From assembly GCA_001724265.1 (NCBI GenBank), contig MEDY01000002.1, positions 186,001 to 249,647 on the forward strand: a DNA stretch of 63,647 bases. The letters are read 5' to 3'. The notes under the pieces were generated by a model. It saw nothing but the letters and a program-made list of their open reading frames with translations. It searched no databases and was not told the origin of the DNA. The position numbers and the translations under genes are program-made. Position 1 is the first letter of the stretch. The number at the start of each line of letters is the position of its first letter. Positions 6,879 to 40,057 of this stretch are shown here, piece after piece. This DNA comes from Rhizaria sp. SCN 62-66. Taxonomy: Eukaryota.

Positions 6879-9800
6879 ATGCGGCGCTCGTACGGGACGT
6901 CGTCGAACCTTAGCAAGCTCGATTCTGACTCGGCGTCCACAGCTTCTGCTGCTGCGTCCTCTATCGTCTCTCCCGCATCTGCGTACACTGCCACTTCCCC
7001 CGCGCTGGGTGTCAACTCATCACATGTCGCAAACATGCATCAAAAACAGCAGTGTCCGCTCCCTGCGCCTGCATTGGGCCTGCGTGCGGTGTCTTTGACG
7101 CCGACAGTCTCTTCTGCAGCTAACGAGCGAGGAGCGACATCCGCAGCGACCGCAACAGCAACAGCAACAGCGACGGTTACGCCGGCTTCTGCTGCCATTG
7201 CGGCGTCTGGTCTTACGCTTGGCTTGCGGCACTCACACTCGCGCAACTCAGCGCTGTCTTCCCTTGCGAACTCTCATCAAGTGAACGCGACGAACTCTTC
7301 CAGCAACAAAAAACACGCTGCAATTCGTAACAGTGACGACAGCGCAAGTGACTGCGACGGCATCAGACAGCTCCAACAGCGACAACAGCAGCGGCAGCCA
7401 CAGCAGCAGCCGCTGCCGGAGCGCGCATTGGCGCAGGAGCCCGTGCAAGACCGTGACTCAGAGTGTGACTGTGCGCGCGAATGCGATTGCGGTGCGCAAC
7501 AGCGTGGCTTGGGACTGCACGATAGCGCGTCGCCAGAGCTGTCTTGCCCGTCGCCGCCTATTGACGAGCTGGCACCGCTGTCGTTTGTTATGCGGGAGCC
7601 GTTACCAGAGCCACTTACAGCACAACAGGTTCTACCACCACTGCAAGTTGTCACTGACCAACCTCACCACTAGCAGCAGACACTGTTGACACAGCAACAC
7701 GCACATGGGAGCTTGGCTTCTGCGTTTACTGCCGCTGCGAGTCCAGTTGCGACACAGTTGCACTCAATCTCCAACTCACAGTCACAGTATCAGTCTAATG
7801 GTCAGCTGCAGTCCTCCACTCAGACTCTTTAGCAGCAACAACAGCAACACCAACAGCAACATCAGCAGCAACATCAGCAGCATCAGTTGCAGCAGCATTC
7901 GGCGGATCAACGCGTTATCTCCTACGCCCTCGACGCCGTGACTACTACCGCCAGCACTCTGCTCACCGCCGCCTCAGCGCGCATCCCACTCTTCCGCCGC
8001 TCGCTCACCACGTTCAACTCGCTCGCACAGGCCACACCGCTCGCGTCCCTGGCGTCGCCGCTTGCGTCGCTGGCGTCGCGGCACTGGCACGCATATGCGG
8101 AGCCGCTCGTGCAGAGTCTCGACGCGAAGATCGGGCAGGCGCTCGCAGTGGAAGCTGCCGAGGCTGCGGCGGCTGCAGCGGCTGCGGCTGCGCTGGCATC
8201 AACGACGAACAACGCTCTTGCAGCTGGGAGTGTTGCTAATGCAGCACAGATTCTTGGTGGCAGCAGCATCAGCGGAGGCAAGCATACCGCGGTTGGCGCC
8301 GGTGCTGGCAACACTGGTGCAGCAGCTGCAGCTGCAAACGCGAGCATGACGGCAACAGCGGCTGCTGCTGCTGCCGCTAATGGTGGCTGCGTGTGTGACT
8401 GTGCGTGCGGTGTGCGCGCCCGCGGCGGCTTAACTGCTGAGCTTGGCGGCTTAGCGTCGATCATGGGAGGCGGCTTCACTTTCGATCCAAGCTCGAGCGA
8501 TGATGATGACGACGACCGGTTCTACGACAACAACAACGTTCGCAACCATTGCAACGCAGGCCGCAGCCGCCAGGGCGCTCCCAATTCAGCGACGAAAGCC
8601 AACACTCGCCGAGTCAACCAAGCAAATGCAGCCGTCAGCAAGCCGAGCAGCTACCAACCCACGGACGCTGTTTTATCCCAACGTACGAACAACAACGCGG
8701 ATGGCGCGGACGCAGACGAAGACGAAGACGGTGATGCCGTTGGCGGCCTGACTTCAGTGCAGCACGGCTTAACTTTGTCGCCTCCAATCGCTCTTCCGTC
8801 GGCTCACAGTCTCGACACGACCACGCCCGGCGCTGGCCAAGGGCATAGTCACGGTCACAGTCTCGCCCGCCACAGCCGTGACTGCCTCGGCCAGAGCCAA
8901 AGGCCAAGGCAAAGCCACAGTCATAGTCACAGTCATGGCCACCACCGTCGACGTCGTAGTGGCGACTTAACTTTCTACACTCCCACCAATGCTGCTACCA
9001 ATAGCAATAACAGCAATAACTTGAGTGCGAGCATCGATGCCAGTGATGCCGCTGGTGGAACTGCTCCCACGACGACAGTCCAGCCGACTTACAGTCAGCA
9101 ACACGAGCGTGCGATGTTTTGCCCTTACCACACGCATGAGAGCTCGTGTAAGTACCGCGCGCGGTCCGCCCCGCGATCGAAGTACCAGGCGACATACAAG
9201 TGCGCCCATTCTAAGCACCAACACCGCCGCCGCGACCACAATTGTGATAACGCTGCAGTCGTCAAAAGCAGTCGCGGCGGCGTCGGCGGCGGCGTCGGTG
9301 CGCTTGTGAACACTGGCGACCGCCCCCACGCTGACTCCGGCGACGCCACCGCTGCTGCAGCGGCCGAGGCTGGCGCTGACGCAGATACTGGCGCTGACGT
9401 TGGCGGAGGCTGCGACGACGACGCCGATGCTGAGGCGCCGGAGTCCGCAGAGGCCGAAGCGTCGTCATCCGCTGCAGCGCTGACAATCCTCGCTTCAGTG
9501 GCCTCAGCGCGCGCTATGGCACTCGCCGCCGCCGTTACCGCCGCCGGGAACAACAACATCAGCAAAACTGCGACAACGAACGCCGTGAACGCAAACCCGC
9601 AGTTGTCGCCACGGGCCGCCGCCGCCACCGCCGCCGCTCGCGCGCGCGCCCGCGTCCGCGCCCGCAAGGTCGCACGCGCAGCCCTTGCGGCAACTGCAGC
9701 AACGACTACTACCGTTGCCGGTGCTGCTGGAGCTGCAACTGGGGCTGGGACTGAAACTGCGGGCGCTAGCGCTGATGCGGATGCCGAGGCTGAGATGCTG

Positions 9801-12800
9801 TTTGGACGCGCGCGGTCGCTGAGTGATAGCGACGACGGTGTCGGTCTGCGGGCTGTGTTGGGCTCACTCAGCCACAGCGAGAGCTACAGCTACAGCTGCT
9901 GCAGTGGCGAAGACAACGCCGACGGTAGTGACAGCGACGGCGACAACCAAGGGAGTACTGCCGGTGGCAAAAACAAGTTCTTTGAGTGTAATCCAGCCGA
10001 TGACGCTGAAACCGAGGAGAGTTACGCTCGGATTAGTCGTCGCTACAGCAAGAGCTTCAGTCACAACAACGCTGCTTCTGGTGCTGCAGTCAACTCCGGC
10101 GCTGCTGCTGCGGCTCTTATGAGTGGAAATGGCAACGATGTCGATGTCAACGGTCTATTCCGCGAGACGTCGTCGGCTACAGCGTCTGCCTCTGCATCAG
10201 GCTCTGCCCGTGCTTCCACACCCGTCGTCGTCGACTCCTCTGCCACTGCATCTGCGAATGCAAGTGCGAACGCGGCTGCTGCTGCTGCTGCTGCGGCTGC
10301 TGTGACCAGTGCCCAGGACCAGCAGGTGCGCCGGCGCTACACTTTCTCGGTTGATCCAAGCACCCGTGGCGCCAATGCAAATACCCCTGGGCTGGCCGCT
10401 GCGGGGGCTGAGGCACACGCTCAGACGCCGTCAGGTAGTCCGCCGGAGGATATAAGTCCCGTTGCCGCCGATGCAAGTACCCCGCCGACGTCCCAGGGCC
10501 GCAGGTCGATGATGACGTGGGCCTGGGCAGGGCTCGGCCGCACTGTGCTTTCCGGTGCGTCGATCCTACTTACATCGCACGAGTATCTAGTGCCCTCCTC
10601 TGCGGCAGCAGCAACGAACAGCGAGTCAGGAAGCATCACCAATGCCGCCGACAACACTGCTCCTGCTGCGAATGCACAGTCGCAGTTGTCTTCACTTTCA
10701 CCGTCGACTGGCGCTGCGAGTGGCATCCCTGTTGTTTCTAAACTCACACTGCAATTACAGCAGCAACAGCAACAGCAGCTAGGTGGGGAGATCGCTAACA
10801 ATTTCAACACTCCACCGCGGCCGAACATGGGCCAGCAACGAGGAAGTTTGCCGCAGAATCTGCCGCCGCGACACCCCAACACGCCCTACGCGGCGACCGC
10901 AGCCGCTGCGGCAGCTGCCGCTGCAGCAGCTGCGACGACCTCAAATTCTATCTCGGCCACCCCACCTCATGCTTCTGTTGTCACAACTGCAACGACATCT
11001 GCTATCTCTGGCTCGAGCTCTTTGTCTGTGTCACCCGTTGGCGCCGGCAGCAGTGCGAACAGCAGCATTAGCAGCAGTCCGAACTCCCCAGGCGCTGTTA
11101 CCACTGCTGTGGCGCCGCCGCGCCAGCCGAGAGCTGAAACATCTGGGCAGTCGCCTCCGTCGACTTCGGCAACGCCAACGAGTCAAGCCACACAGAGTGA
11201 TGCCGCGAGTGACCAGGTGGCTGATTCTGCAGCTGGTTCAACTGCTGCCGAGACCGCGAGGCGGCCTAACTTTGACGCGCGGCGGCCTGATTTATGGTCG
11301 CGCTTGCAGTCGACGCTGTTGAGCTCCAAGTGGCGCTTCTCCGTCGCGTCCACTTTGTCTCCGTCAACCGCGTCAAAAGACGCGAATAACACTGCTGCTG
11401 CGCAAAACATCCCTCCTCAGAGTGGCACGTTAGACAGCACACTGGACTCTGGCTCGTCAACGAGCACAAACAGCAACTCCACGACGGTCTCAGAGTCTAC
11501 AGCGCATGATGCGAGTGGGCCGATGGGCGCGGCGGTTGACGCGAAGCCTCTGTCGACTGAGGCGTTTTACTCCATTTGTCAGTCTATTTTTCTAGCATAT
11601 TTCACTCCGACAACCGCAGCGTCGAACGCAACGGAGACAGCGGAATGCGCAACTGCGATGGATCTTCCACCGGTTTCCACGAGTCACAGTGAAGGCAACC
11701 ACGTCGTCGCCGCAGCGGTGGAGACTGAGCTTGAGGACACGCACCCGCGCGCCCGCTTCCTGATGCTGCTGCGCCGCTCTCTCGGAGAGCGCTGGCGGCC
11801 GTCGCTTGCGGCCCCTGCCTCGGGTTTTTTTGCAGCAGCGTCTGCGCTCTCTGGTCTCTTGCGCGGTGCAAACAATAGTACCAACAACAACGATAACAGT
11901 CTCGCCAACAACCCCGCTAGCACGCCAACATCCGTGACAAGTACAGCTATCGATGGCGCAAGCACCGCAAGCGCGAACCAGTCTCCATCGCAGCCAATGA
12001 CGTTAACATATGCGGCTGCTGCCGAGTCACGGGCGACGGTCTCAGCAGGCGGCTTACCTTTCTCGACGTCGCCCCGCAGAGGCGGCCTGATTTCCCAGAG
12101 TGTGTCGCGTTTGCTGTCACGTTGGGAGACGCTTGTTTCGCGCATTGAAACAACTCTGCAGTCGTGGCTTCCCCCGTCTGCAAGCCCGACGGGAGCAGCA
12201 TCAGCAGCTGCAACACCAGAGACACCAGTGGCAACCGCAGCAGCGACCAACGCTACTGCAAGCAGTCCCGGTGCTAATCTTGTGCCTGCATTTGACACTG
12301 TGTCTGAAGCGAATATTGTACCCAAGGCTGCTCATGATACCGCTGCTGTTTCTGCGACAACTTCGACTGCGATCACTGCTGCGCATAGAGTAGACGCAGC
12401 TGTTGGACCACTGGTTCCTCCTCTCATGCTCACAGCCTCGGCCTTTGCACCGTCTGTTTCGAGAGCGTCAACTGCGGCAACCGCCAGCATCAACCCTGGC
12501 TACAACAATGTCACAGGATCCGGTGTTGATTCCCCTTCGACCCGGGGCCGCAACAACAGCATTAGCCATTCCCAGTGTCCACAGCGCTCATACACACTGC
12601 CTGCTGTCCGGCGCATCGACACTGCGAACGCAAGCGACACGAACGACAGCGTTGGCGACAGCGACGCCGCTGCCCACAGCAGTCGCGCGACGAGCCCGAT
12701 GCCGGACGCTACGCTGACTCACAACTACACAGCCGACAGCACGGACGTCGACAACTCCCACAACAGTAGTCGCAGCCACCCTGGTGGGTTAAGCCACACA

Positions 12801-14657
12801 GGTGGGCATGGAGGCGTGTTTGGCGACAGCGGCGATTTCGATGAGGACGATGACTGCGATCTCGTCACTTTGCTTGACCGAGTGCTCCAGTTAGAGCTCG
12901 ACGCTGAAGCAGAGGCGGAAGCAGAGGCGCATGCCGAGTCAGAGTCTCGGAGTTCGACTCAGACTGCAACAAATGATATTAAGCGTGATCAGAGTGAGCC
13001 CACAGTGACGGTTGCGAGACACCGTACGGTTGCTGCTGTGCCGTATGTTGCGAGTGTTGTGTCTGCCGCAAGCATCAACACAAATAGAAACAGCAACAGT
13101 CATGGAATCAGCAACGAGCAGACGACATCCCTCAAGGCCGCACAGCAACAACAACATCAACAACAACACCAGCAACAGCAAGCATCACCGTCGCAGCTCC
13201 AGCGCAGCGCAAGTAAACGCGTTGTTCCCGCAGTCTCTCTGCCGCCGTCATCGTCCGCGCCCGGTCAAATCCCTTCGCCCGCGACGCCCACACCGCAGGC
13301 TGCTGCGCTGTACGGCAACAGCGCGAGCGGAGGCGCACTCGGCGCGAACGCTTTCGCAGTGCCGCTGCAGGTCGGCGACTTGACTTTGATGCCGTCAGCG
13401 CCGGTGCTGCCCGCGCCGGGCCGCAACCGCACGCCAACGCTTGGGGGCCGCACGCTCACACCGACGAATAGCCACGCTGCTTATGGTGCCGGCGTTGCGA
13501 CGCCGCCGCTGGCAGCTGCGATTACGCCAACGCTGACGCCCGCACCCGGTCTGGCAGCGACCGCAAGCGTTGGAGCGGTGCGCGCCACGACGCCGAAAGT
13601 TCAGGGGCTTGAAAACGGGCAAGGAGTGCTTACGCCGTCACAGGGGGCGCATGCGCAGACTGGAAGAAGCATTGCGCAACCGCGACATCCGCAGTCGCAG
13701 CTGCAATCACAGCATCATCTGCAAGAACAGGGTCAGATTTACGCCCAGAAACAGACAACTGGTTTGTTTTCCACCGCCCCCGGGGCTGTTGCTTATGTAG
13801 TTACTCCTGACAGCGGAGGTGCAGGTAGCATGCAACGGTCGCAGAGCCGGCAGAACTTGTCCGCATATTTGACCGAATCTCAGGGCCAAGGGTACTTACA
13901 ACATACGCCGCGGCTGCAGCGTAACAACAGTGCGACCGCAACGACTACCACTGGATCGAGTCCCGCTGCTTTCACTGATGTTTTTGGAACCAACGCGACT
14001 GTTATGACTTTCGGCAACGCGAATGCTGTCGTGGATGCTGGTAGCGTCGCTCTTGTTGGTGCCCACGGCCTCGGTAGTCGCCGCTCGAGCAACACCAACA
14101 GCAACAGTCACAGCGCGGTCACGACGAACAGCGCTGGTGCATCGACAACGACTACTGCGTCCAATAGCGCGCACTACTACGACAGTTCTGGCCACGGCCA
14201 CGGTTACGGGCACAGTGTGCACAGCGCACTCACTGTCAGTCATGCTGCAAGTGACGCAACCGCGACACCCCAAAGTCTCACACCCAGTGTTGCTGGTGCT
14301 GGTATGAACACTGGTGCTGGCACTGACACTGGCACTGGCTGGGCATCGCCCGTTCCGACTCTGTCCAGCGGAGGGCGGCTTAAGCGTCTCGCTGCCGCGG
14401 CCGCCGCTGCACCGGCAACCACGACTCCCGGTGTCGGAGTCAGTGCCGCTGCTCTTGGCGCTGGTCTTGGTGGCAGCGGCGCGTCAACGCCTGTGCCCAC
14501 GGTCACTCGCACTAGCACGAGTATTGGTGCTGCCTCGGTGAGCAATAGTCCGGTTATTATTAGCAACAACGGCACAAGCAAAGGTAAGGGTGCGAATGGG
14601 ATTGTAAAGACGGGATCAGTGTCGGTAGTGTTGGGGTCGCCGTCCCCGCGTTTGTGA
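6879..14657 (+). CDS. Large low-complexity Ala/Ser/Thr/Gln-rich protein (about 2592 aa) with two in-frame TAG codons; possible perilipin-like amphipathic segments
   Basis: ORFs 6858-7673 and 7887-14657 are in the same frame and are separated only by TAG 7671-7673 and TAG 7830-7832. The intervening sequence is coding-like and Gln-rich (QQTLLTQQHAHG...STQTL*QQQQQHQQQHQQQ). First ATG 6879, ends in TGA. Confidence 0.8.
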
Positions 14658-14778
14658 ACGTTTTTTTATCGGCACACATATCAAATGTATATCTAGCCTT
14701 AATTGAATAAAACATCAACTTTTTATTATTAAAAGGTTTCAAGGCATAACCCCGTTTGGGTCTTCGTCAGAAGACTGT

Positions 14779-17700
14779 TTACAACCCGAAGGCACTGTCA
14801 ACGACACTGACATTATCGCTGTCGCTGTCGCTATCGCTCTCACTGTCGCTGTCGCTGTCGCTCTCACTGTTGCTGTCGCTCTCACTGTTGCTGTCGCTGT
14901 CACTATCGCTGTTACTGTCGCTGCGGATAAACTCTTTAAAAGACATATATGACCGCCGTGAGTTATCGCTGCTTCCGAGATGTTTTTGACACTTTTCTAA
15001 ACGACAATGCTATTCGAAGCATCGCAGTACATCGGCGTCAAAGGGCGTGTCCCCACTGTCATGTGATGCTGCTGTAGTGTCTTTTACACACGACATTACG
15101 CGACCGACGGGCACAGCGCCACGCAGCATTCTTGCTACACACGGCTTGAAAACAATGAATACAGGCGTATCATCTGTGCAAGGTGAAGGTAAAATACAGC
15201 GCGGATACATTAACACTGTTCCGACAGGATACGTTAAAATGGCTTCATCGGAGGGTGATTCGTACTCACCGTAAACAACGTCGTCATTGGGCAGTATAAG
15301 TGGCAACGTAGCACAGGAAATCGATGAACTGAAACAGTAAAGCGTGACAAACGGCAGCAATGCCGCAGTCAAACCAGGTGGTACAAAGCAGTTGTGCACG
15401 GTCTGGGCTAGGGCACCACTTTTTGAAGCGGCGCGGAAGTGTGCTGCGTTTGCGGGAAACTTTGAATCATTGAGCCGAATCCTCAAAAGGTACGCGTCAC
15501 AACGTTGCTTTGTTGCACTGGCAATATGCAACTAAAAAACGACATCCGATTGCTTTCCTGTACCCGTCACTGTTTTAACAGTATATTTGAGGACGCTTTT
15601 ACGCGCATTCCTTTGAAGTTTTTGCCTTATCATCAGCGATAACGGCGGGCCACAAGTCAGCACAGGTGCAAATCGTTGCTCAAGTTGACGCGTCAACTGA
15701 TTGCACGTAAGCAGACGTGGGTAGCCAGCGTTTTCAAGAAGGGATGCAATGTAATTGTTGAACTCAGATTCCCAGGCAAAGGACCGCAAGAGGACAAACC
15801 ACGAAGCGTCTTGGCGTAGAACCTTAAACTCCTTCGGCTCTTTCTTTGCCCTTACCTCTGCTTTTTCATCCGAAATCACCTGCTGATATGGGGCATACCC
15901 CGCCTCCAGAGTCTCGCGTGCCAACGCATCAACGCACAGCTGCAGTGCGCGCGCTTGTTGTACCACGTCCGGGAACGACACGGAGCATCGCACACGAACT
16001 ACCGCCATAGAGTCGCTAATGAAAATGTTGCCGCTTTTGTTTGTGTTCGTCGTCCTAGTTTTTAACTGCTATTCGTTCAGCAGCGCTGGAAAGCTCAAGG
16101 TGGCTGACGCCGCACAAACGCCATCGTTATCTGCGGGGTTTGGGTAAGCCTGAGCATTAGCCTCCTCCTTGCTGCCACCATCTACTTTGGTAAGCCAAAC
16201 AACACACTGGCCACAGCTCGCATTGTCAGTGCTAATGTTAGAGCTTTCAATAAGGCGCACAGAAAAAACGGCATTTACGCAACCAAACGTACTTGCAACT
16301 GTCGTAAACTGGGTCAAATATGAGGCGCTGTCAGGAAGAACAACACTGGTTGCTGCATCATCGCGGTTACTCAACTTCCTAACAGCGTCGCGGTCACTCC
16401 CCTTCTGAGTCGGTTGCTCCGTAGTCCGCTGCAACCCGCAGTGAATCTTACCCTGGTCCAATGCTGATAACGTGCTAAGTGCAGCGGACTTTTGGGACTC
16501 CTTGAAAGACTGACTTGACTGTGCAACTGACTTCTTGTCTTCAGAGTCACAAAGGCTGCTAATTTTGCTGTTTTCATCAGAGAGTTCGTCATCTGTAAAA
16601 ACAAGATTGTCGACAGCACGCGCGCGCACACCACAGGCTTTGTAGAGTGACGCAAGTGCTTTTGAGACGGGCTCAGCTTCCACCTCGCATGTGAAGCCTT
16701 GGGTATTTACGCCCTCAACACCGACATCTGTCTTGCAGCCGCGGTGCGCACGAAAGCGGAAACGCACACCACAAAGCTCAGTCGAGCCTAGCTCAACTGC
16801 ATCAGAACCGGGTGTCAATGCAGAAAGCGGAATATCAGCCTCGCAAACGGCCTCGCGCGGGGTTATGGTCGCGGCAGCGTCTGCAAGTGCAGCCTCAAAG
16901 GTAGCACGTGCCGCTGCGCACTTGATGCTTCCGACTTCAAGAGGGGGGTCAACACGCTTGGACCATCCGGAGCTCGCGGTGAGAAGTGCGGAGAGAGAAG
17001 TGATCCCTGGTGCGACGACTGACGCGGAAATGCTCGAGAGATTTTCACGTGCGATGCTGAGCTTCTTTTCCTCAGCCGCAATTGACTGTGCTGTGTAGAG
17101 CTTAAGCTGCGAGAGCACCACTGCAAGAGGAGCGGTGGCTTGTGCAGTAAATGCCTTGCTGTGGTTTAACAGCGTTGTGTGTTTACAGTCGACCTCATCT
17201 TTAAACTGCGTCATTGCAGCGTTTTGCTCCTGTCGTGTTTATTACATGAAATTTTCAGGGCAGTGTAAATTGGTATGGATATGAAGGTTTGTGAAATTCG
17301 TTTCATGCAAAAATAATTCATAACAAACAATAACCTAATAGTGAGCAAAACCACTTGACTTGTTACGGACCTGAACGCTACGCTCAAAGCTGGCAAGTTC
17401 GAGTGGGAGCTCTGACACCTTCGTTTTTAGCTCTTTGTGCACATCGCCAATCTCGCGAATAGAGTGAGCAGCGTGTTCGCCACTCATGAGCGCGCACCGC
17501 GCGCATGCAGTGGTTTTGCATGTGTCGCACCAGTTTGCGATCTCAACCGGCGGTGTATGCAAGTGGCAGAACTATTGGACGACATACAGTTAGAGTGACG
17601 CGAGAAAATGAACAAATCAATCGGACATGACAAAGCCATAAAGCTTCGAGAGGATCGCGAGATAATTATAAATTTTATGTCGCGTACGTTTGGGTTGTTG

Positions 17701-18064
17701 GCAAGCACGAAGCCTGCCGTAGCACTTGAGACAACGACGACAACAGGGCTCGTCGACGATGCAGCATCGTCCGTGACAGTGACGTAGGATGATTCCGAAT
17801 TATGGAGGGCTATTTGAGCCTACGATTGCAGGACAACAGAGTAGATACATCGATCACATCATATATCAGTCGTAAGAGTGATCGTTGTGAGATAGAGTTC
17901 ACATGTACGTAACATGTCTACGAGGTCAGGGATGGGAAAATATCATCTGAGAGCTAAGTTAAGCGTACCATCAAGCAAACGACACAGATGTCCATGGCGC
18001 GGCCACCCGCGGCAGGTGACTGTCTTTTGCCACAGATTTTGCAGCTAAGCCCTTTTGCCGACAT
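14779..18064 (-). CDS. B-box zinc finger / coiled-coil (TRIM-like) protein, about 959 aa; exons 18064-17969, 17819-17688, 17571-17371, 17229-14779; three in-frame TAG codons
   Basis: Exon 1 MSAKGLSCKICGKR...DICVVCLM has two CxxC pairs. Exon 3 FCHLHTPPVEIANWCDTCKTTACARCALMSGEHAAHSI is a B-box pattern followed by a coiled coil. ORFs 16069-17214, 15532-16008 and 15010-15531 are one frame separated only by TAG. The frame continues into a Ser-Asp repeat tail and ends at TAA 14779-14781. Confidence 0.8.
14815..14922 (-). repeat. Hexanucleotide-type repeat (AGCGAC/AGTGAG) encoding an acidic Ser-Asp/Glu tail
   Basis: Reads SDSNSDSDSDSNSESDSNSESDSDSDSESDSDSDSD in the B-box gene frame, with synonymous third-position variation. 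Confidence 0.85.
17230..17370 (-). other. Spliceosomal intron 3 of the B-box gene (141 nt, phase 0)
   Basis: CAG|GTCCGT...ACGACAG|GAG. AT-rich, contains in-frame TAA TAA, and joins FERSVQ-EQNAAMTQF. Confidence 0.75.
17572..17687 (-). other. Spliceosomal intron 2 of the B-box gene (116 nt, phase 0)
   Basis: AAC|GTACGC...CTCTAAC (branch point-like)...CAATAG|TTCTGC. Confidence 0.78.
17820..17968 (-). other. Spliceosomal intron 1 of the B-box gene (149 nt, phase 0)
   Basis: ATG|GTACGC...ATCGTAG|GCTCAA keeps the frame open between exons 1 and 2. Confidence 0.7.
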
Positions 18065-18551
18065 GAAGAGCTTTCTGGAATTGACGTGAACGAAGAAGAT
18101 GCTGGTGTTAGAGTATGTGAGATGATAATAAGGCGTCGATTACAAGACACAGTGCCGATTCCCCCAAATGTCGAGCAAACATCAAGTCACTATCAAACAT
18201 ATAATATGTCGAGTTGCACACGTCATCAAGACTGAGCTCTTTGGCAAATTAACGACTTGGTTTCCGAAGAATTCGTCGTCATTACATAACTCAGCTTTCC
18301 GGGGATTGGTCGTAATTGTTTGGACAAAATGAACTGCAAAATGAACTGCCGGTGGTCAACAAAGCATGACATACGAAGATGAGTAAAACGAACTGTATAA
18401 TTTAGAATTAAAACCGTCGAAGAGCGTGCGAATATATTTGAATCGGCTAAGACACTGGAAACACATATGCTGGCAAAACTAGCCATATCGCCCGATGCTA
18501 GTAGCGGGATTTCCATTGACATCGCCGACAAATCTAACCCGATGATATAGG

Positions 18552-18585
18552 CCTACAATTGCAATTGCCTACAATTGCAATTGTA
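18552..18585. repeat. Tandem 16-bp duplication (CCTACAATTGCAATTG x2) containing a 16-bp perfect palindrome
   Basis: Directly visible; TACAATTGCAATTGTA at 18570-18585 is self-complementary. Confidence 0.9.
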
Positions 18586-26817: not shown

Positions 26818-26853
26818 TGCGAGGTCAGCCAAAATTGCGAGGTCAGCGAAAAT
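26818..26853 (+). repeat. 18-bp tandem duplication in the 3' UTR (TGCGAGGTCAGCSAAAAT x2)
   Basis: Directly visible, one mismatch between copies. Confidence 0.8.
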
Positions 26854-28213: not shown

Positions 28214-28690
28214 GAGGAAGAAAGCCGGGTTAATCTGGGAGGGCAAGACGCGAGCACAAGCAGGTTTGATGAGATTAGTCGAGGCAGAGATCGTCGTAGC
28301 GAATACAGTGAAATGCCTATATGAGACCATCTAAAAGATATATATTCATCAAATATCATGTCATTCGGACAATGTTAAGGGCGTCGTTGGGCATGGATGT
28401 GAGTCTTAACACCAGTCTGTTGAGCCCAGAGAGTAATCCTTTTAGTCGTTGGCCAGCGCGAGTAAGTGAGAGATGAAGGAGAGTGCTGGTGAGACGAAAC
28501 AAGCAAATACTCACTCTAATCTCGCAAGATACAAATGCCAAGCTACCATTGCAACTTCTCATTACTATTATATATTGCTTTAAATTCCTATTTTTCTCTG
28601 CATTATTTCAGGACGGAAACTCGCAAACAAGAGACAATTCCCCGGCCGGTCAAAAGAGAGCGTTTGAACACCCGCCTTCACGCCACTCCC

Positions 28691-31600
28691 ATGGGGTTCC
28701 GGGCCTTCTATTTGGCCCTCTGCTGTGTATTCCTATACGCAGCAAGCACAGTGGTACGTATTCTATTCTCAACACCTCTTATGTTTTTCTGCCTGCTTAT
28801 AAAACGTCTCATTATTGCTATTTTCCACAACCTGCCTGAGTCTCATCACCTCCTCCCATCTTCCCTTCTTTTCGACGTGTTGCTCTCGTCTCTTTGCGTG
28901 TATTGTGTAGCTCGCGGATGACAATATCCCCGGTCTTATATTCAGTACTTCTTCAGTGGTGGCGTGGACATCTGGTGTAACGATCAACGCGACTTGGGCC
29001 TGCGGTGGATACTTCTCCAGCTCCGCTGGCGACCGTGTCGTTCTCACCATGCCAACAGGCTTCCTTAAGTCCGCTGCTACCACCTCAGGTGATGCTGATG
29101 CGATGAACTGCACGGTTACGCGCTTTGGCACCTCGGTTGTGATTCCTTCGACCATGTACACAACAGGTCTTACTGTCGACGACGGCAAGTTCGCTGTTAC
29201 TTTGACAACTGCCGAGACTCTCCCCAGTCAATGCTCGCTCGTCTGTCAGCACGTCACAAACGCTCCGCGTCAGCTTGCGTCCGATTGGGTAGCTCAGCTT
29301 ACCCACATTATGCCTTCCGAGACTGGAGATATCCTGATCTTTAGCGAGACCACACCGCTGCCCACTTTCACAACACCGCGCTTTGCCCCCACGATGACCA
29401 CTGCTGTCAACATCAGTACCGAAGGGCTCCCAGTCACAGCGCGCTCCTCTGCTCTGCTTTCGCTTCAGATCCCGGAACGTGGCCCGCAGTTGCAGACTGG
29501 CCAGTACTTTTCAGTCGAGTTTCCTTCGCTGTGGCCGCAGACCAACTCGCTCTACACTGACGTGAAGATGACACTCACGATCAACACATTCTCCGTTGTG
29601 CTTCCTTCCACGGGCCGCACGAATAACGTCTATATGTTCCTCGTTCCGAGCTCTGTCGTGACGAACGCAAGTACGAATGTTGCGTTTTTAAACAATAATG
29701 GCGCCAGGCTACCAATGCGCATTGACATTGTCGGTTACGCCCGTGCGCGTACAGTGAGTGAGAAATTGTATCTCTCTGTATCGCGTTATTTCTCTGATGA
29801 TACTCCCCTGGCGACTGTAAACAGTCTGTTCTGGCTGCCTACGGTGGTGTACGGCTCGATCTCTACTTTCATGCTGGCCCCTAAGGTTCCTCTCACGGGT
29901 TCACACGGCGATCTTACGATCACCATTGTCTACCCGTCAATCGACATCAACCAAGGTGAAATCTTTAACCTCATGCTCCCCACAGCGAGCGGTTCACACT
30001 GGGAGTTCGTGTCGACACGCACGTGTAGTCTTAACGGTACGGACTCGCGTACCGCATCGATCACAGCCTCCACGAACGTCATCTCTCTGCTGTCCATCTC
30101 CGCCGCTGCCCGCATTGCTAACCTTGCGATTGACGAGTCCGCCACCAACACACTCATCATTGTGTGTAAGGACGTCATGTCCCCGCGTGTTCCTGTCGAT
30201 TCGGCCACAACCGCTACAGCGCGTATCGTCACTGGCTCCGTCACACTCGCTCTTTCCCCGAGTAACACGATCAGTTTCCCTGCGATCTACAGTGCGACGG
30301 TGCTCGGTGGCGATCTCCCCGTTCGCTTTGCGTTTGGGTCCCCGTCCTCTGCCACACAGTCCTCGCTCACGGTCACCATCACCACGCTTGCGTTCCCGCT
30401 TATCGCAGCCGGATCTGCCGTGGAGATCGTGCTTCCCGACCGCTTCAGCTACGGCAATGACGCTAGCTGCGGACTTAAGGTCAACGGTTCCGACGCCTCT
30501 GGCACTCTGCTAACGACGACTACGTCCGCTTTTACCCCGTTTGGTCGCACGCTGCGTCTCCGCATTCCGAACGCGTGGCCTGACACGCTCGAAGTCCCCA
30601 TTGTTGTCAGTTGTGCCAAGATCCTGATCGCCACCTATGGCCGCGACGCCGCAGATGACGGCACGGTGAGACTGATCTTTTTCGGCAATTCTGTCGCCAG
30701 CTCGAGCCCGGTGCAGTACACCGAGTTCCTAGCGTCCGTGCGCACGACGGCCTCCGTGCCCGCATTCTCCCCGTCGATTACTATGGGTGACGTCATGCGT
30801 GGGATCACGTACCTGCCCGAGACTCCCGCGGCGAGCGCTGTTGTGACCATCACAGCTGTCATCTGGCCGCTCATCGACGACAACCCCGGCGTGGAATTTA
30901 CCGTCGAGTCCAACGCGGCCGTGGAGATCCTCGTCCCTGCCGCGGCCATCAATGCCGGCTCCACCACGGGCGGCGCCTCGGCTGCCACGGTCTGCAATAT
31001 GACTTTGAACATCGTCGACGCTGAGACGTCTTTCTCCAACACCATCGCCGTCACCACCGAGGCTGAGATTCTATCTAACGTCATTGCACGTTCCCCCACG
31101 AAGCAGTTCGCGCGACTCCGCGTGCGCACTGCACGTGAGATGGTGCTGCCCGCGGACGTCACGCGCCGTGTCGCCACGGTCATCTGCACCAACATCAAGC
31201 TCCCCACGCACGGACTCCGCGCCTCGCGTGTCGGTCAGGTGCGGATCGTGAACACGGCGAATCTTCCCATGACTCAAGCGCTTGACCTGGGTATCCCAAC
31301 GGTCACTCCGCGCGCTTTATCAGTCGCGCAGATGTTCGCCACCGAGTCGATGATCACCGGTGCGCTCGGCGCCATGGATATCTCGTTCACGTCCTCCCTC
31401 GCTATCTCGGCCACGGACATTGAGGCGCAAGTGATCGACTACTTCAACATCGAGATCGAGATGCCCACGGGATTCACCACCGCGACTACCCGCAACATCA
31501 CCTGCCGCGGCACGTCCTCAGACGCTGTGTGGTACCCGGTCACGCCGGTCGTTTCCCACCGTGGCGTGCCCATCTTCCGCTACCCCGTTAAGGCCGCGTT

Positions 31601-34600
31601 CGCCGCCATCAACGTCAACCAGCGCGTGTCGCTTCAGTGCCGTTGGTTTGCGCTGCCCCTCACAGCGCAAACGTCGTCGTCATGGCGCCTCTCGCTGCTC
31701 GCGTCGCCGGAGAACGACGTCGTCGGCACTCTCCAGGGCACGCTGGGCGCGATCACCACGCCCGCGACGTCGACCAACTTCGGTGGTGTGAAGCGCGAGC
31801 TCGTGTACGCTAAGACTTCCGCCGGCTCTGCACGCCTCACCGTGACGATCGACCCCGCGCTGAACCTGGACCGCGAGAAGAACCACGCTGTGCGCGTTTT
31901 TCTGCCTAGTACGGCGGGCCTCACCGCGGGCTCTATCATCACGGTCGACGGGTCGACGAACCGTACCATCACGTGCACTGTGGCCGACGAGCTCACTCCG
32001 ACGCAGGCCCCGATCGCCACCACGGTCTCCGTGTCGTACATCACGTCCGGTGACAACGACGAGATGCTGCTGTTCCCGGAGTCCCGCGTCGCAGTGCTCA
32101 CGGCCACTCCGCTGGCGTCGCTGACCAGCTCCGCCACGAACCCCCGGCTCGTACTCGAGTGCCTCGCCATGCCGCTGCCGCCGGTTGACTACGCGCAGAC
32201 CCGCGACGTGTACGTGGGCGTGCTCAACGCCGAGCAGGCTGTGTCGCAGATCTCCACCGAGACCGCTGTACTCTCGGCGTTTATCCGCGCCCCAATCGCG
32301 ACCGATGGCGGCACGTCCTCGTTCCTGCCCGACTCGATCGGCGCCGTCGGTGCGTACCGTCTCGTGCTTTCTCCGGTCAACACGTTCGCTGGCACATCTG
32401 TGCGTGTGCCCGTGCCGCCGGGCACGACGCGCGCGTCCGAGTCAACTGCGATCACGTGCAAGCTCTTTTCGCGCCTTGCTGGTGCCTCGACGGAGACTCT
32501 GGTATCCACCATGACGTGGGCCACGTTTGCGTACCCGTTCGACTACATTGCGACGGGCCCGCTCATCCACAATATGTCCGCCGACACCACCGGCATCATC
32601 CAGTGCTCAAACCTGCGTGCGCCGACCACTCCCGCCGGCGTGTCCGCGCTCATGGTCACCACGCACGACGCCACGGGCGCGGTGCTGAACCGCAACTTCA
32701 ATGTCGTGTTCGCTGGTGTCGGTGCTCGTGACTTGGAGGGCTCACGTGTTCTGCGCATGAGTCCGTCCTACGTCTCTGTAGCTTCCACGCTACTGTTCAC
32801 GTTCGAGGCACTTCCTTTCGCGCTCAACATCGACGACTACTTCGTCGTCGATCTCCCCGATGGCGTGCTTACTACGCGCGCCACGCGCTGCCTCGTCGCC
32901 AACGTGCAGGCCAAGAGCTTCGCGATTCTCGACCCTCTGACTGACGGCGGACTGCGCCGGATCCAGGTTAACGTCGCGTCCACGGTTCAGGTGCTTGCGT
33001 CGCGCAAGGAGCTGACTGTAAGCTGCGTGTTCATGACCAACCCATCGGTTGCGATGTCGTCTGTGTCGACGTACAACATGCAGCTCTACTCGAGCGCCAG
33101 TGTGCTCCGTGCAGTGTCCCAGTCCATCACGTTCCAGGGCGTTCTCTCCCCTCGTCTCGGTGCTGGTTCGATCACGGCCAAGTACTCGATGCCCTACTCG
33201 TACCAGTCGACCACGATCTCCGTCGGTATGTCCCCTCTGCCCGTCGACCTTACCACCTCTGACAAGCTTGTACTTTCGTTCCCCTCGGAGTACGAGACGG
33301 CCTCGCTGTTTAATGCCGCATGCTTTCTCAACCGCACGCTGACGTCCGGTACGTACACGCTCACTTCAACGTCGTTTACGCTCTCGTCGGTCATCACAAG
33401 CGGTGTGATGACCTACGACCTCACAGTGAAGCCTGCCAACACTGTGGCTGCGATCGACGCCTCCGCCGGCACGGTCACGCTTGTGTGCAATGAGATGCGC
33501 ACCCCGAGGACCGCCATCGCGAGTACCGCGGCCACACTCTCGCTCTACAAGGGCACCAACACCGTTGCGACGTACATGAACAACGAAGTCGTGCTGCCCG
33601 CGATCGGCTACACCGAACTTGCCACAGACTACGGACTGTTTGTGCCCAGCAACGGCCGCGTCGCTGGCACGAGCACGCGCGAGCTTGTGCTGACGATCAA
33701 GCCGCTGCCACTGATGCTGCAAAGGTACTACGGTCTCGAGCTCGTCATCCCCGTCGGCGGCTGGGTGTTTGACTCTGACACCAGCGGCAACCGTGTCGAA
33801 CCGTCCTGCTCGTATCAGGTCCAGACCGGTGTTAACGGCACGCTTATCAGCATGGCTGCACACACTGAGGTCGTTGCGACGTCGTCTTCGCTCACGATTC
33901 GCGCCGTGCTTACGCTGCAGGACATTGCGAACAAAAACAACACTCTTGTTAAGCTTGCTTGCTCTCCCATCGACGTGCCCGCGACCCCGATCGCGGCTAT
34001 CAACAACATCGTTGCCATCGGTCTTGCGCCGCGCAACGAGGCCGCCAACTCGCTGAGCGACGACTTCATCTACTTCATGCGTCAGTCTTCGATCGGCATG
34101 CCTGCGATTCTCTCCGCCACCCAGGCGACGCAGATCAAGACCTACGTGCGCCACAGTATCACCATCGCCGGACTCGCCGCGCCACTAACCGCCGACAAAC
34201 TTAAGTCAGCTGCCAGCGCCTTCTCGTCACAGGTTGTCGCGTCCGGTTCGCTCGCCGACGTCGGCGTTGTAGTCACGCATCAGTACGCTGTGGAGACTTC
34301 CGCCAGCACGCTCTCGGTCGCCACGGGTCAGCCGCTGCCGACCCTCCGCGGCGCTGCGGCTATCGGCGCCGCTGTCGCCAGCACCAAGAGCAAGTGGGGC
34401 GTTATGGCTGATCCTGATGAGCAGACCGCTTTGGCTGCGCTTGTCAACGCCGACGCCACCGCCACTGCCTACGGCGCGCGCGCGAGCAATGGTGATTTCG
34501 CGACGACTGCTCTGCCGTTGCCAGGCCCGGGTGGTGTCGCTCGGACGGGCCCCGGCCTGCGTGCGACCACGAGGACCTATGCCAGCACACTGTACTTCCA

Positions 34601-34997
34601 GGTTAGCATGCCGGCGACCTTCACGGACGGCATCACCTCGTTCATCGACCGTCTCGTGCTCATTCGCAGCTCGATTGACCAGGCCGTGCGCGAGGAGACC
34701 CGCGGCACTGCGGTCACCGCGGGCGCGCTGTCCATCACGGACACGTCCAATTCGTGCTCCAACGGCGTCAAGGATGGCACCGAGACCGGGCTCGACTGTG
34801 GCGGCTCGTCGTGCAGTCAGTGCGCGATTGGTCTCGCGTGCTCCGCCAGCAGTGACTGTCTGTCCTCTGCGTGTGACTCCACAGCCGGCGTGTGCGTGCT
34901 GCATTCGAGCCAGACCAGCGCGGCTGTGAACGCGGCCTCTGCCGGGTTTGCGGCTCTGATTACGCTGGTGGCCGCTGTTGCAATGCTTGCGTTCTGA
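28691..34997 (+). CDS. Secreted, probably GPI-anchored 2049-aa Thr/Ser/Val-rich surface protein with repeated beta-sandwich modules and a C-terminal Cys-rich module; exons 28691-28753, 28911-34997
   Basis: Splicing yields the signal peptide MGFRAFYLALCCVFLYAASTVLA-DDN. Recurring modules of roughly 140-180 aa carry Cys pairs. The C-terminus has CSNGVKDGTETGLDCGGSSCSQC...C and a hydrophobic tail ending at TGA. Confidence 0.88.
28754..28910 (+). other. Spliceosomal intron (157 nt, phase 0)
   Basis: GTG|GTACGT...pyrimidine-rich...TGTGTAG|CTC completes the signal peptide in frame. Confidence 0.88.
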
Positions 34998-36712
34998 GCC
35001 GGGTAATGATTCTGACACGTCCTGCGAGCGCATACGACCGATGCCGGCCTGAGTTGGCTGTTGTGTGCGACAGCAATTAGAATGTCACGTTTCATTCACC
35101 CTATGAATCAATATCTGTCATGTTGGTATATTTACTTCATTTCTGTTTTATTTTGTGCTAAACTCAAAGAAATGCACCGTGTCCATCGTGACACATGCGT
35201 TTGTGACTTCTGTGTGTCTGTCTCTCCGTCTGGAAAACATGATTTCTCTTCGTTTTTGTAGCTATATGTATTAGTACGTATTAGTAGTTGTATGAATTGA
35301 GTACTGTCTTGTGTTTGATGTTTTCTGCTTTAGTTACTGTTAAAACTGTTAAAATACCATGTTCAGTGCTGACTTGCTGCGTGAAGAGGCTCTTACAGGC
35401 TGGACGCGCGCGGTTAGAATTTAGACATTCTATTGTTTCGAAAATTGTATATATCACGCCCCACAAAGGCATCCATACATAATAATCTCTCCCATCCGAG
35501 CCACCTCATTGTGTCACTTTCTGAGTATCGTGTTAGTGTTTTTGAGTGCCACCCTCTTGTTGTGCGACGAGCGCGATGAAGCTGATACCTTGCCAAGAGA
35601 AAACTTTGCTGCTGTCACTCAAAACCAAGGGGTACAGATGTGATGCGATGCGTCTGGTCAGCTCGAGTCCCGTGTATTAATCGATATCCTCACTGACGCG
35701 CCAGCAGTGACCGCCATCATAGTGTCAAACTCGCTGCAACACAGCCTAATTCTTGGCGAGCACTGGCTCACGTGCGAAGCTTGTTAGAGATCTATCTTGG
35801 CTTGCACAAGCTTATTTGCTTAGTGCGCAGGCTCCACAGCGTCCACGCTCGCAGCAGTGATGACCAAGACCAGGAAGCTGCAGAATAAGTGCAAATGTGG
35901 GTTGATCTTGAAGTGACCGTGACAGCATATACCAGTGCAAACAAAAGTGCATGGCGCCCACGCTGAAACAATGTCGGGTACGTGTAGCGCATGTTTACAG
36001 TCATTGCTACGTTGCGCGTCCAGACAGCGCATGCGTGGTGTGCGTCGTGGCTTCGTGTAGACAACGTGTCCACCCGCGCAGCAGCGTGAGCGGTGTGTGT
36101 GTGAAGTCAGTCGCCGGTGATGTACAGCCGCGCCAGCAGTAGCAGCACCAAGGCCGTGCGGACGCCCTGCGCCTCGGCCGCCGCGGCGTCGATCAAACGC
36201 GACGTGCTCCGTCACATGGATCTCGAGAATCGTGGGTAGTCGTGCTGAGAGTTGATTGATGACCGTCCGTGAACACTGCGCGTCGCGCCAGCAAGCATAC
36301 GACACATTCTTTGCGTGGTGTTACTAATAGTTTGTTGTTGCTACCATAAGTTTGTTGAAGATAAAATATGCAGCAGTGGCTTAATAAATACACGGTGGAC
36401 ATTTTCTGAAGCCCATGACGAAAATACTTACATAATCGAGTGTGGTCATGTCTTATTGGCAAGCTACCGGACTTGTCTTGGCTCTCAGAACGGATCAACT
36501 AAGGATCAAATTACGACTCGACCTGAATCGTCAATCTCGAATCTTAAGAGCTGTATTTAAACCACTGTATATTTTCCATTTGTTCTTTTTTTCTTTTTCT
36601 GTAATCTTGTATATGCCGCTCTCCTCACATCATCTCCTAAACGCGATTCCCACTGATCTCTTTCGTCGCAGATCCTTCGCTCGTAGTCCACGCACAAGAC
36701 GCAGTCCCGTCA

Positions 36713-39700
36713 ATGCTGCCGATGTCGTCGCGTCTAACGATGGATGATGGTGGTGGCTTTACCACCCCGGCACATCAGCCACGCTACTCTCGCTTAGCCG
36801 CCGTTACAGCGACTCCCATGACAGATGACCATGACTCCGCGCTCCACGCTAGTCAAGTCCCTCTTCACGAGCCTCAGGCACAGTCGTCGTACTCCACTGT
36901 CATGCGCGCGCCTTTCTCGCCGGCGTTGCCCACGACTGCGTCTGCGACTCCGGTGCGTAGTGTGGGTGGGTTTAGCGGCTTCGGCTCGCCGCGCCAGGCC
37001 CCCGCGCCTACCGGTCGGGCTCCGCTTACCGTTGTCTCGACCGCGACGCCTTTCCGCTCACACGCGACGGATACATCTTTCCCCGCTGCGTCTCCTGCTC
37101 ACAGTGTCTACACAGTCCTTTCAACCCCGTACTTGCCTCCAAACGGCAGCTACAACAACTACAGCGCACACCGTGCGACCAGTGCGTTAGCCTCCGCTGT
37201 ACATACAAGCAGTGCGTTTGCCGCCACACCGGCGGCGCGGGCTCCAGCACCTGCAGTGTTGCAGCCATATCTCCCTTAGCAGTCCTCCGCCGCCGCCTAC
37301 ACAGCTGCCTCCGCTGCCTCTGCTTCTCCATGGACCAAGTCCAGCATCAAATCCGAGGCGCCTGCGACTGCTGCGGCTGCTGCTACTGCCACGGCTGCCG
37401 TGGCTGTGACAACGCGCGACGCGCACCGTGCCGCGCGCGCCGACGCAGAGCTGGCAGCGATGCACGCCGACAAGGCGCGGCAAGTACAACAAGCTCTTGC
37501 ACTGCAATCGCGCTCGCCGTCGCACACCAAGCGCAAGGGCGGTGCGAGAGCGATGGGTGACAGCGCCCACAATCACGACAAGATCGGCAACGATAACGAT
37601 GACGATGACGATGACAATGGTGAGAATGACACGAGTGATAGTGACAACGATAATGACATTGCGGCTCATGGGTACGGACTCGTGCCAGTTAACAATAGCA
37701 ATCCCATCAACGACTGCGACATCGACGCTGAGAGTAATCTCAGCGCTAACTCTACTGCGCACAGCGAGGCAGTGAACAAGAGTCTCTTGGCTGCTCTGGG
37801 TGACTCTGGCGCCAACGCTCGTTTTACCAACACCATGACCCGCGTCTGCCCGAACTCTGCTTCATACAGCAACGTCACTAACGGCGGCGTCAGGAGCACT
37901 GGCGCGGCTGCCAAGGGGGCGGACTACTACGCAGCTCTCGCAGCGCGCATTCTCCCCCACATCCAAGCCGAGGCCCTGCGCCTTGCGGCCACCGACGCCG
38001 CCGCCGCATTGGCGACCGCAACAGCTCTGGCGCCGCCTCACGTGACCCGCGCCTGCGCTTTGACCGGGTCGCGCGCGCCCGTTGCAGTTACTCCCGCGGC
38101 TGCAGAGGCGCACTATGCCTCCGCGGTGGCGCGCGCCTCCGCTGCTGCTTCTCCAGCTTCATCGGCGTCAACAGCGTCGTCTAGTGCCGCTTTGACTGGT
38201 ACTAGCGTATCCGCCTCTGTGGCGGCTGACTGGGACGTGACGCGCGCTCTCGGTCCCATGCCTCCGCACGCCAACTCGTGCAAGTATATCTCCAACGCGA
38301 TGGCCGAAGTCACGCCAGCGGACCTCGCGACACTGCGGCCCGGCACGTGGCTTAACGACGAAGTCATCAACGGCTACCTCGCGCTCGTGCTCGACCGGGC
38401 TAAGCGCAGCGCCGGTGACCGCGGTGCCGCGGCCGTTGCCCCGTGGCAGCGGTCCAAGCCGCCGAGCGCGGCGCGGGTGGCTGCGGAGCCTGCGCTTGTG
38501 ACTGGCGCCCCCAATGCAGTCACTGCGGCGGCGCCGGGCGCTCTTGCGCTTGGACGCGCGCGGGCGCAGGCGCGTGCTGATGTTATGGCGCGCGCCAACG
38601 CACGCGTTTATGGCGTCACTGACACCGAGAACCGCAGCAATAATAACATCACAAGCAGTAGCGCTGTAGGCATGGCTGACGGTGATGGTGACCGTGAGTA
38701 CTCACTGCAAGGCCTGATGAGCGCGGTCAATCTCAACGCCCGCGACTCACACACAAACGCCAAAGGGGAGTGCTTTCTGTCGCAGCAGCCGCCCGGTGGT
38801 GGCTATTTGCCAGTGCGCGCCACCAGTCAAACCGCGGCTGCTGTCTCCAAGACCGCTGCAAACGCTGTGACGAGCAACAGCGTGGCCAGTACGATGTCTG
38901 AACTGTTGGCTGGAGTGGGCATGCAATCCCTTGTCCCCACGGTGGCTGCAGCGCGACTGGGTTTGCCTTTGTTGCTCTCATACTTGCCCCTCACGAGCGT
39001 CGCCACAGACAGCGACAACGCTCCCCACAACAGCAATATGGGCGACAGTGCAAGTTCCAGTTCCAGCGCCAGCGCCAGCGCCACTGCGAGTGCAAATGTG
39101 AGTGTGAGCACTGTGTCGCTGTTGGAGACACACCCGCTGCTTCCTGCGACCGCGCCAGAGCACGTCGCGGGCGCGTTAACTGCTAGTTTGACCGCAACAG
39201 CGACTCCTTTGCCGGGGCGGCTTAACATCCACATCTTCCTGTCACAGTTCTTCGCGATCTTTGCACCGAAGCAGCCCGCAAACGGTGGATATCATCACAA
39301 CCACACCGATGAGCACCAGTACGACTACCAGCGCGTGCGCCGTTGGTCCAAGACGGCGCAAGTGCGGATCTGGGGGCTGGACAAGCTCATCTTGCCGTGT
39401 CACGTGCACGGCAACCACTGGACTCTGCTCGTGGCTGACTTTCGCCGCCGCGAGATTCAGTATTATGACTCACTGCAGGGATCGCTACCACGCAGTCACG
39501 TTATGGTGCTGCGGCGGTATCTGTGCGACGAAGCACGCGAGTACGAGCCCGCGCTGCACGCCGCTGCAGAGGCTGCTGCGGCCGAACGCAAAGCCAAGGC
39601 GCTTACGCTTAAGGCGAAGGCTGAGAGCGTCTCGACTGCGGCTGCCGCTGCGGCTGCGGGTGCCAGCATGGGTGAGGACGGCGATTCAGCTCATTCGCAG

Positions 39701-40057
39701 CCGCAGCCGCAGTCGGTGGCGAATGTGGGTGGCCGTGAGCCGTGGTACCGTGGCGTGATGACTGGCTGGCGTGACGTTGTGATGTCGGACATCCCTCTAC
39801 AGGCCAACGGGTACGACTGCGGCATCTTCCTTCTTGGTATGGCGGAGCATGTGGCGCAGGACCGCCCGCTAGGCAAGCACACGCGCATGCGCGTCGTTCG
39901 CCGCACTGTGCCGGGCAGTGATCTCAACGGCAGCGGCGAAAACGCGTCTGTGGTGACGGAAACTGTGAGTAAATTGTGCACTGCGTTCACACAGGAGGAT
40001 GTGCCCATGATGCGACTTCGTATTGCATTGCAGCTGGAGGCCAACCGTCTGGCGTGA
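36713..40057 (+). CDS. Ulp1/SENP-family SUMO protease (peptidase C48), about 1114 aa, with one in-frame TAG
   Basis: DLATLRPGTWLNDEVINGY, RVRRWSK, ILPCHVHGNHWTL, YYDSL and QANGYDCGIF give the His-Asp-Cys triad. ORFs 36713-37279 and 37400-40057 are the same frame joined across TAG 37277-37279. A possible acceptor at 36671 suggests an additional upstream exon. Confidence 0.9.

Follow-up and report, generated by a model that had tools for sequence, protein, structure and literature searches.

Seven TAG codons within four genes of the window

The stretch of contig MEDY01000002.1 analysed here (hereafter the window; 63,647 bases, about 59% G+C) carries about 11 long genes on both strands as intron-free, very long open reading frames (ORFs), and four of these genes, g1 to g4, contain the triplet TAG within their reading frames. 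UAG is very probably translated in this organism and not read as a stop, with UAA and UGA still terminating. An earlier interpretation of the same DNA from its letters (the sequence-only reading) had listed seven such TAGs, at +7671, +7830, -16071, -15534, -15012, -27598 and +37277, each flanked by open, coding-like frame. All seven were found at these positions and strands, all seven join two open frames, and the G+C fraction (GC) is high on both sides of each, in a window whose coding stretches lie at about 0.55-0.70 against about 0.36-0.46 for the spacers. The fused or lengthened ORFs that result when TAG is read as sense are given in Table 1.

The models of ten genes in the window comprise 17,903 codons and hold seven TAGs, no TAA and no TGA, in agreement with the claim that they are free of internal TAA and TGA. 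The expectation that random nonsense should also yield those two stops can be quantified: from the window's own codon usage, TAG makes up 54-58% of expected nonsense products, and the probability of seven TAGs in seven is 0.014-0.023. With regard to gene ends (Table 1), TGA closes six genes and TAA four, and the tally made previously (six TGA, three TAA, no TAG) stood for TGA and for the lack of a credible TAG end, with one TAA more than had been counted and with the TGA of g10 being doubtful. GC falls sharply right after the stop, to 0.34-0.46, in the eight main genes except g10, for instance to 0.37 after the TGA of g1, to 0.39 after the TAA of g2 and to 0.34 after the TAA of g11. TAG ends none of these eight genes and none of the six ORF ends in the related loci described below; the sole ORF of the window that ends in TAG runs antisense to the ADK-like gene.

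Table 1 Genes and ORFs of the window, in window coordinates
Feature	Position	Strand	Product or description	In-frame stops	End	ORF(s) with TAG as stop	ORF with TAG as sense
g1	6876-14657	+	~2,590-residue low-complexity protein	TAG 7671-7673, 7830-7832	TGA	6774-7673 and 7833-14657	6774-14657
g2	14779-17214	-	g2-family protein	TAG 16069-16071, 15532-15534, 15010-15012	TAA	16069-17238	14779-17238
g3	27335-28330	-	331-residue coiled-coil protein	TAG 27596-27598	TGA	27596-28330	27335-28345
g4	36713-40057	+	Ulp1/SENP-type C48 protease	TAG 37277-37279	TGA	36641-37279 and 37280-40057	36641-40057
g5	19017-25232	-	control, 2,071 codons	0	TGA
g8	29049-34997	+	control, 1,982 codons	0	TGA
g10 + g11	40787-62970	+	Sushi/GPS giant surface-type protein(s)	0 TAG in ~7,400 codons	g10 TGA (44795-44797), g11 TAA
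ADK-like ORF			adenylate/UMP-CMP kinase-like		TAA
ORF	4739-5380				TAA
ORF	25870-26814	-	antisense to ADK-like gene		TAG

Evidence for coding sequence beyond the TAGs

Nine homologues of g2 were found, of 478-877 residues, with those that span its three TAGs at about 800 residues, and their alignment passes through all three TAG columns, gap-free at the second and third and with invariant motifs after them. Past the second TAG comes the most conserved part of the family, with the motifs IRLxD, NAAHFR, CFVP, LPFVTL, D[IV]VYGEY, YPVGTVL.YPR, FIVFKPC and LRGAVPVGRVMS. Because the second and third TAGs stand in ordinary columns without insertion, they are not in introns, and the C-terminal domain has no Met available for a separate start, its first Met lying well inside the domain. 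An AlphaFold model of g2, in which the second TAG falls in a predicted strand (557-565), was poor (mean pLDDT 47.8; 55-84 in the C-terminal domain) and was not relied upon.

All members of the g2 family have in common a C-terminal domain of about 260 residues with no Pfam match and a weak SPRY lead (score 0.77), and the longer relatives also carry a Cys/His-rich N-terminus, B-box-like by eye, followed by an alanine-rich repetitive stretch. From its sequences the family thus resembles TRIM-like proteins in layout, expanded into many paralogues in one metagenome. The C-terminus of g2 itself (14782-14960, minus strand) is a (Ser-Asp/Glu)n tail of about 50 residues that is present in none of the homologues.

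The search with g3, against 1.84 billion representatives, gave 20 matches at E = 0.001 or better. One database protein, P0143, is the g3 product as a 244-residue stub ending at the TAG. The closest relative, P0144 (50% identity), aligns as far as query residue 305 and shares with g3, downstream of the TAG, the motif LDxFYxDV and the very C-terminal DDELP; the codon score of g3 is 0.45-0.48 past the TAG. Four TAGs, three in g2 and one in g3, consequently lie inside conserved coding sequence.

For g1 no informative homologues were found. The search with g4, which matches Peptidase_C48 (E = 2.6e-16), returned only its own short product and one weak match, with no informative homologue of its N-terminal part; its database entry, P0021, is an 834-residue version. 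The in-frame status of the TAGs in these two genes is read from frame openness and codon usage alone. In g1, ATG occurs first at 6876 and, past the TAGs, next at 8346; the 524 codons upstream of the latter contain no TAA or TGA (P = 4e-6 to 2e-9). The codon-usage score of g1 is mostly positive across the TAGs, and a single-nucleotide polymorphism (SNP) between strains at 8054, between the second TAG and the next ATG, is synonymous in the TAG-read frame. In g4, neither the coding score nor GC shows a break from about 36640 onwards, and the 273 codons upstream of the ATG at 37460 are free of TAA and TGA (P = 1.6e-3 to 3e-5). In TAG-free genes, no more than 23-46 open codons precede the first ATG, and the stop-free stretches that precede the first post-TAG ATG in g1 and g4 are unlikely to be non-coding.

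Relatives of g2 in another metagenome

A scan of JGI metagenome contigs with a g2-family pattern gave 11 loci (L001-L011), all from one metagenome. Within their tblastn alignments the in-frame stops were TAG in 13 cases, TGA in one and TAA in none, the lone TGA lying inside an insertion in L009. The database protein P0010 is encoded at L003 (99.7% identity). It was predicted to end at a TAG, yet this TAG is followed by the conserved C-terminal FRPV of the family and then by TGA. Family ORFs in these loci end in TGA (four) or TAA (one), and a neighbouring ORF of 2,444 codons ends in TAA.

Three paralogues have a TAG in common (L003 at about 379-384, L006 at about 9803-9811 and L008 at about 606-611), just before a conserved Cys/His-rich segment (CCYKHDEP...), by eye a B-box, and in L006 and L008 no ATG precedes it in frame. 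This shared TAG has the look of an intron acceptor (YAG) and not of a codon, so the lineage may have a few introns. In L005 (about 520-961), a C-terminal extension consists of a degenerate ubiquitin tail with a TAG, followed by a full ubiquitin-like unit; the TAG falls at the position that we take to be Lys63 of ubiquitin.

Independent assemblies and strain differences

Contigs from runs of other studies were compared with the window over 7650-27620. Two contigs of a 2025 assembly (X4), covering 13491-15890 and 15881-17185, show no differing letter and hence bridge the three TAGs of g2 (15012, 15534 and 16071). Contigs of X3 and X4 over 7650-9793 and 7650-9344 bridge the TAG at 7830 and cover that at 7671, which is only 21 bases from the start of the compared stretch and, under a 31-letter rule, counts as covered and not as bridged. 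No difference was listed at any of the five TAGs covered. The letters of the TAGs are therefore confirmed in independent assemblies for five of the seven sites; of the other two, 27598 is near the end of the compared stretch, with none of the listed contigs over it, and 37277 lies beyond that stretch.

Fourteen scattered strain differences lie in g1, g5 and the ADK-like gene, nine of them synonymous at third positions; of the 26 differences listed, the other 12 were set aside, one as intergenic and 11 as clustered at one contig end. Across about 4,850 codons, the four TAG-bearing genes show no frameshift. Between studies and years, the strains (X3, X4, X5 and X8) are nearly identical, with these 14 differences and a 3-base deletion at 9053 in 20 kb. 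Low-complexity repeats of GCN/CAR type (about 7830-7900, 9615-9640, 10758-10780, 13142-13181 and 22403-22430) draw many foreign contigs.

Rarity of in-frame TAG and the residue inserted

Several observations weigh against UAG being a fully established sense codon of one meaning. TAG occurs in frame at 0.39 per 1000 codons (0.04%) versus 6.27 per 1000 in the other frames, a 16-fold depletion that sets it apart from ordinary sense codons. Gene ends were few, and came from one window only. No tRNA gene was found in the window or in the related loci L001-L011, and the window carries no eRF1 gene. A poly(A) RNA run (X8) gave small contigs on g1 and g5, none of which, among those listed, covers a TAG. 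Frame breaks occur in four of the 11 related loci (L007, L008, L009 and L011), so that the g2 family includes some damaged or mis-assembled copies.

The residue aligned to TAG belongs among these observations. In an alignment of g2 of the window, eight ORFs of the related loci and eight database proteins, 15 of 20 TAG sites had at least four aligned residues and were tabulated. Their plurality residues were A at three sites, S, Q, L and K at two each, and D, R, Y and T at one each. The summed BLOSUM62 score over these sites was best for K (1.6), followed by Q (1.1); for comparison, random draws of 15 sites for any real amino acid in these rows scored 21-104, with a 5th percentile of at least 12.8, and yielded the correct residue in 91-100% of trials. 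For Q, K, E, L, S, Y and W, the agreement was too low compared with real codons of that residue (P = 0.005 or less). The g2 family is fast-evolving and paralogous, which makes the test weak for conserved sites. No single amino acid was recovered over the 15 sites. Judged from the alignment, the TAGs are derived states at changeable positions, not conserved codons, and many of the residues aligned to them (Q, K, L, S and Y) are one-step neighbours of TAG.

The next codon does carry a signal. The sequence-only reading was correct in that CAG follows four of the seven TAGs, which has a probability of 1.9e-5 at the background CAG frequency and of 4.5e-3 on the assumption that TAG and Gln codons share their neighbours. 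CAG comes next at a rate of 0.11 where the codon is one for Gln, and at 0.02-0.05 where it is one for Lys, Glu, Leu, Ser, Tyr or Trp; the observed context is about 20-fold or more less likely under any of these six. Two TAGs also stand at the head of poly-Gln runs. The previous preference for Gln is upheld by the next-codon statistic only, since the aligned residues fit no single amino acid, and Leu, proposed as a plausible alternative, is poorly supported, being the plurality residue at 2 of the 15 sites and disfavoured about 20-fold relative to Gln by the next codon. The excess of CAG after TAG is also larger than Gln clustering predicts, and CAG after UAG is a context that promotes readthrough, which the excess could equally reflect. 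In the related loci, CAG follows none of 14 TAGs and C follows three of them.

Alternative explanations

The first alternative is that UAG remains a stop genome-wide and is efficiently read through in favourable contexts, by dual meaning or leaky termination, which we regard as unlikely. C follows five of the seven TAGs and CAG four, beyond what Gln clustering would give. The site at 16071 reads TAG CAG TTA and is of the CAR-YYA type, a known readthrough motif, although the full motif follows only one of the seven. TAG is moreover very rare in frame and stands at variable sites. However, TAG ends none of the eight main genes of the window and none of the six ORFs of the relatives, g2 would require three readthrough events in succession, and among the TAGs of the relatives the favourable context is scarce (C in 3 of 14, CAG in 0 of 14).

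That the four genes are pseudogenes or nonsense alleles, with TAG as the only stop owing to a TAG-biased mutation spectrum, is improbable. TAG is indeed the commonest expected nonsense product (54-58%), the residues aligned to it are mostly its one-step neighbours (Q, K, L, S and Y), and broken g2-family copies exist among the relatives. Against this stand the probability of seven TAGs in seven (0.014-0.023) and, for window and relatives together, TAG as 20 of 21 in-frame stops (P about 1e-4). The four genes are in addition free of frameshifts across about 4,850 codons, conserved motifs are kept after the TAGs, the strain SNPs are mostly synonymous, and g3 and g4 look like conserved housekeeping-type genes and not like members of an expanded family.

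Editing of the mRNA at the TAG sites, from UAG to CAG or from UAG to UGG, is very improbable. In some fungi, A-to-I editing is known to correct UAGs that lie in frame. At none of the 15 TAG sites is Trp the plurality residue, its column share being below 0.03, and Gln holds that place at only two. For the RNA-type runs X5 and X8 the listed differences include none at a TAG, although their cover of the sites is not shown. Sequencing or assembly errors deserve next to no credence, being refuted for five of the seven TAGs by the X3 and X4 contigs, identical across 7830, 15012, 15534 and 16071 and covering 7671, and errors would not be of TAG only.

Stop-to-sense reassignment as the favoured reading

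Taken as a whole, reassignment of UAG from stop to sense is the reading that we consider likely. The part of the sequence-only reading that placed TAG inside continuing genes stood, with homology on both sides in g2 and g3 and with TAA and TGA never in frame; for its amino acid, Gln, support came from the next codon only. Under reassignment, UAG would go unrecognised as a stop and be translated, and UAA and UGA would terminate. We infer a tRNA with anticodon CUA, which would most simply derive from tRNA-Gln(CUG), an eRF1 that no longer recognises UAG, and Gln as the putative inserted residue. The tRNA(CUA) and the altered eRF1 are proposed because they are known from other such codes (PMC5304391; PMC9161772).

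The density of in-frame TAG is uneven, with three in 811 codons of the lower-GC, fast-evolving g2 versus none in 6,108 codons of g11. The rarity of TAG and its variable positions suggest a young or still costly reassignment, or efficient readthrough, and its depletion and concentration in g2 indicate a codon that is still avoided. A recent or still mildly costly reassignment fits these data, and UAG may have a dual or context-dependent meaning elsewhere in the genome.

More tentatively, and with low confidence, the code change may have been caught early, with UAG cleared from gene ends and eRF1 no longer reading UAG, and with the meaning of the codon not yet settled. At such an early stage, any one-step neighbour (Q, K, L, S or Y) would be able to give rise to a TAG, TAGs would survive at tolerant positions only, and decoding would be carried out by weak suppressor or near-cognate tRNAs, possibly helped by a following CAG.

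Gene content of the window and its source

Pfam matches in the window comprise a DYRK-type protein kinase, the Ulp1/C48 protease (g4), the adenylate/UMP-CMP kinase-like ORF, a YccF-domain ORF and the giant Sushi/GPS proteins (g10 and g11); an Rfam scan of the window matched no family. A search of PDB sequences with the ADK-like ORF matched only UMP-CMP and adenylate kinases. The frame of g11 is open from 44488 and overlaps that of g10 as far as its TGA (44488-44797). Sushi-like sequence stands on both sides of this overlap, and the sense switches frame near 44560-44580. They probably form a single gene of about 7,400 codons whose frame shifts by one base, which an assembly error, a genuine shift or a very small intron could explain, and the TGA of g10 is for this reason probably no true end.

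A search for any stop flanked by coding-like sequence did not discriminate and flagged two TGAs too, one antisense to the alanine-rich g1 and the other in a pyrimidine-rich stretch upstream of the kinase gene that we read as a leader. This stretch (3700-4300, minus strand, upstream of the kinase start) is strongly pyrimidine-rich on the coding strand, is free of some stops and gives false coding-like flags.

All or part of the window sequence is present in bioreactor, wastewater, activated sludge, sludge and microbial fuel cell runs; 11 run rows from eight studies match it, four of the 11 with at least half of the sampled words. The source, an uncultured eukaryote, turns up repeatedly in metagenomes of wastewater and bioreactors. 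The window reads, from its genes, as that of a cellular eukaryote, and its nuclear status is likewise suggested by eukaryote-type genes only. The DYRK2 kinase is about 60% identical alike to those of animals, green algae, dinoflagellates and Thecamonas. In a quick tree of the window kinase and 31 of the 120 listed matches, the window joins only P0023, outside the animal and green-algal groups; the protein atlas returned generic kinase clusters only, besides the weak SPRY lead for the C-terminal domain of g2. Ciliate genomes are unlike this 63.6-kb contig, with its 59% GC and its roughly 11 long genes, free of introns and on both strands.

Giant-virus origin was also considered. A scan of viral contigs with g2 found no relative, and so gave no sign of such an origin, and no viral feature was seen in the window. 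Two scans of prokaryote genome contigs returned nothing but L012, a 37% match at chance level. A 2026 catalogue of giant viruses describes single-stop reassignments as favoured in viruses of effluent and activated sludge (PMC13524828).

Relation to known codes and significance

Codes in which UAG has become sense, with UAA and UGA still terminating, have already been described for Iotanema, the rhizarian exLh and phyllopharyngean ciliates. In Iotanema spirale (Fornicata), UAG encodes Gln, and UAA and UGA are stops (PMC5304391); as in the window, UAG alone is reassigned, no gene is described as ending in UAG, and UAA and UGA terminate (PMC5304391). The two differ in the number of in-frame UAGs (204 in 126 genes versus seven in about 11 genes and 17,903 codons), in the main stop (UAA, 104 of 119, versus TGA) and in the residue, Gln occupying 22 of 28 hyperconserved sites in Iotanema, with no single residue recovered in the window (PMC5304391). 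Where the alignments of Iotanema are less conserved, Gln dominates only about one in five of the UAG positions (PMC5304391). The eRF1 of Iotanema has a changed GTS motif (PMC9161772).

In exLh (Sainouroidea), UAG encodes Leu (PMC5304391). This code resembles that of the window in reassigning UAG only and in terminating at UAA (56 cases) and UGA (15 cases) alone; it differs in its 384 in-frame UAGs in 71 genes, far denser than in the window, and in a meaning, Leu, that is poorly supported here (PMC5304391). Phyllopharyngean ciliates have reassigned UAG to Leu and Gln (PMC11687900). They are like the window in that UAG alone has changed and that they were found by metagenomic mining, and unlike it in preferring UAA as the stop where the window prefers TGA (PMC11687900). 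One ciliate reads UAA as Lys and UAG as Glu (PMC10553269). In Blastocrithidia (Trypanosomatidae), with a GC-poor genome, all three stops are reassigned, UGA encoding Trp and UAA being sense (PMC12153298). As in the window, genes that are otherwise intact contain in-frame stops, and some genes avoid them; in contrast, TGA and TAA, which are sense in Blastocrithidia, are never in frame in the window and end its genes (PMC12153298). A code of this type was rejected for the window, with in-frame UGA or UAA numbering 0 in 17,903 codons. The present case departs from the known ones in its far lower density of UAG, in UGA as the main stop, in being GC-rich and in the lack of a single residue. A literature search, supplements aside, returned no report of UAG reassignment in a wastewater protist.

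Nuclear codes in which UAG and UAA have unlike meanings are known from only a handful of lineages (PMC5304391; PMC11687900; PMC10553269), and each new case of such a split tests how eRF1 tells UAG from UAA. As the organism recurs in wastewater and bioreactor samples of several studies, material for its study exists. Gene calling under the standard code shortens its proteins, as seen in the 244-residue P0143 (g3), the 834-residue P0021 (g4) and P0010, the last cut at a TAG. If the tentative view of a code change caught early is true, the organism would represent a natural 'ambiguous intermediate' in a GC-rich eukaryote with UGA as its main stop.

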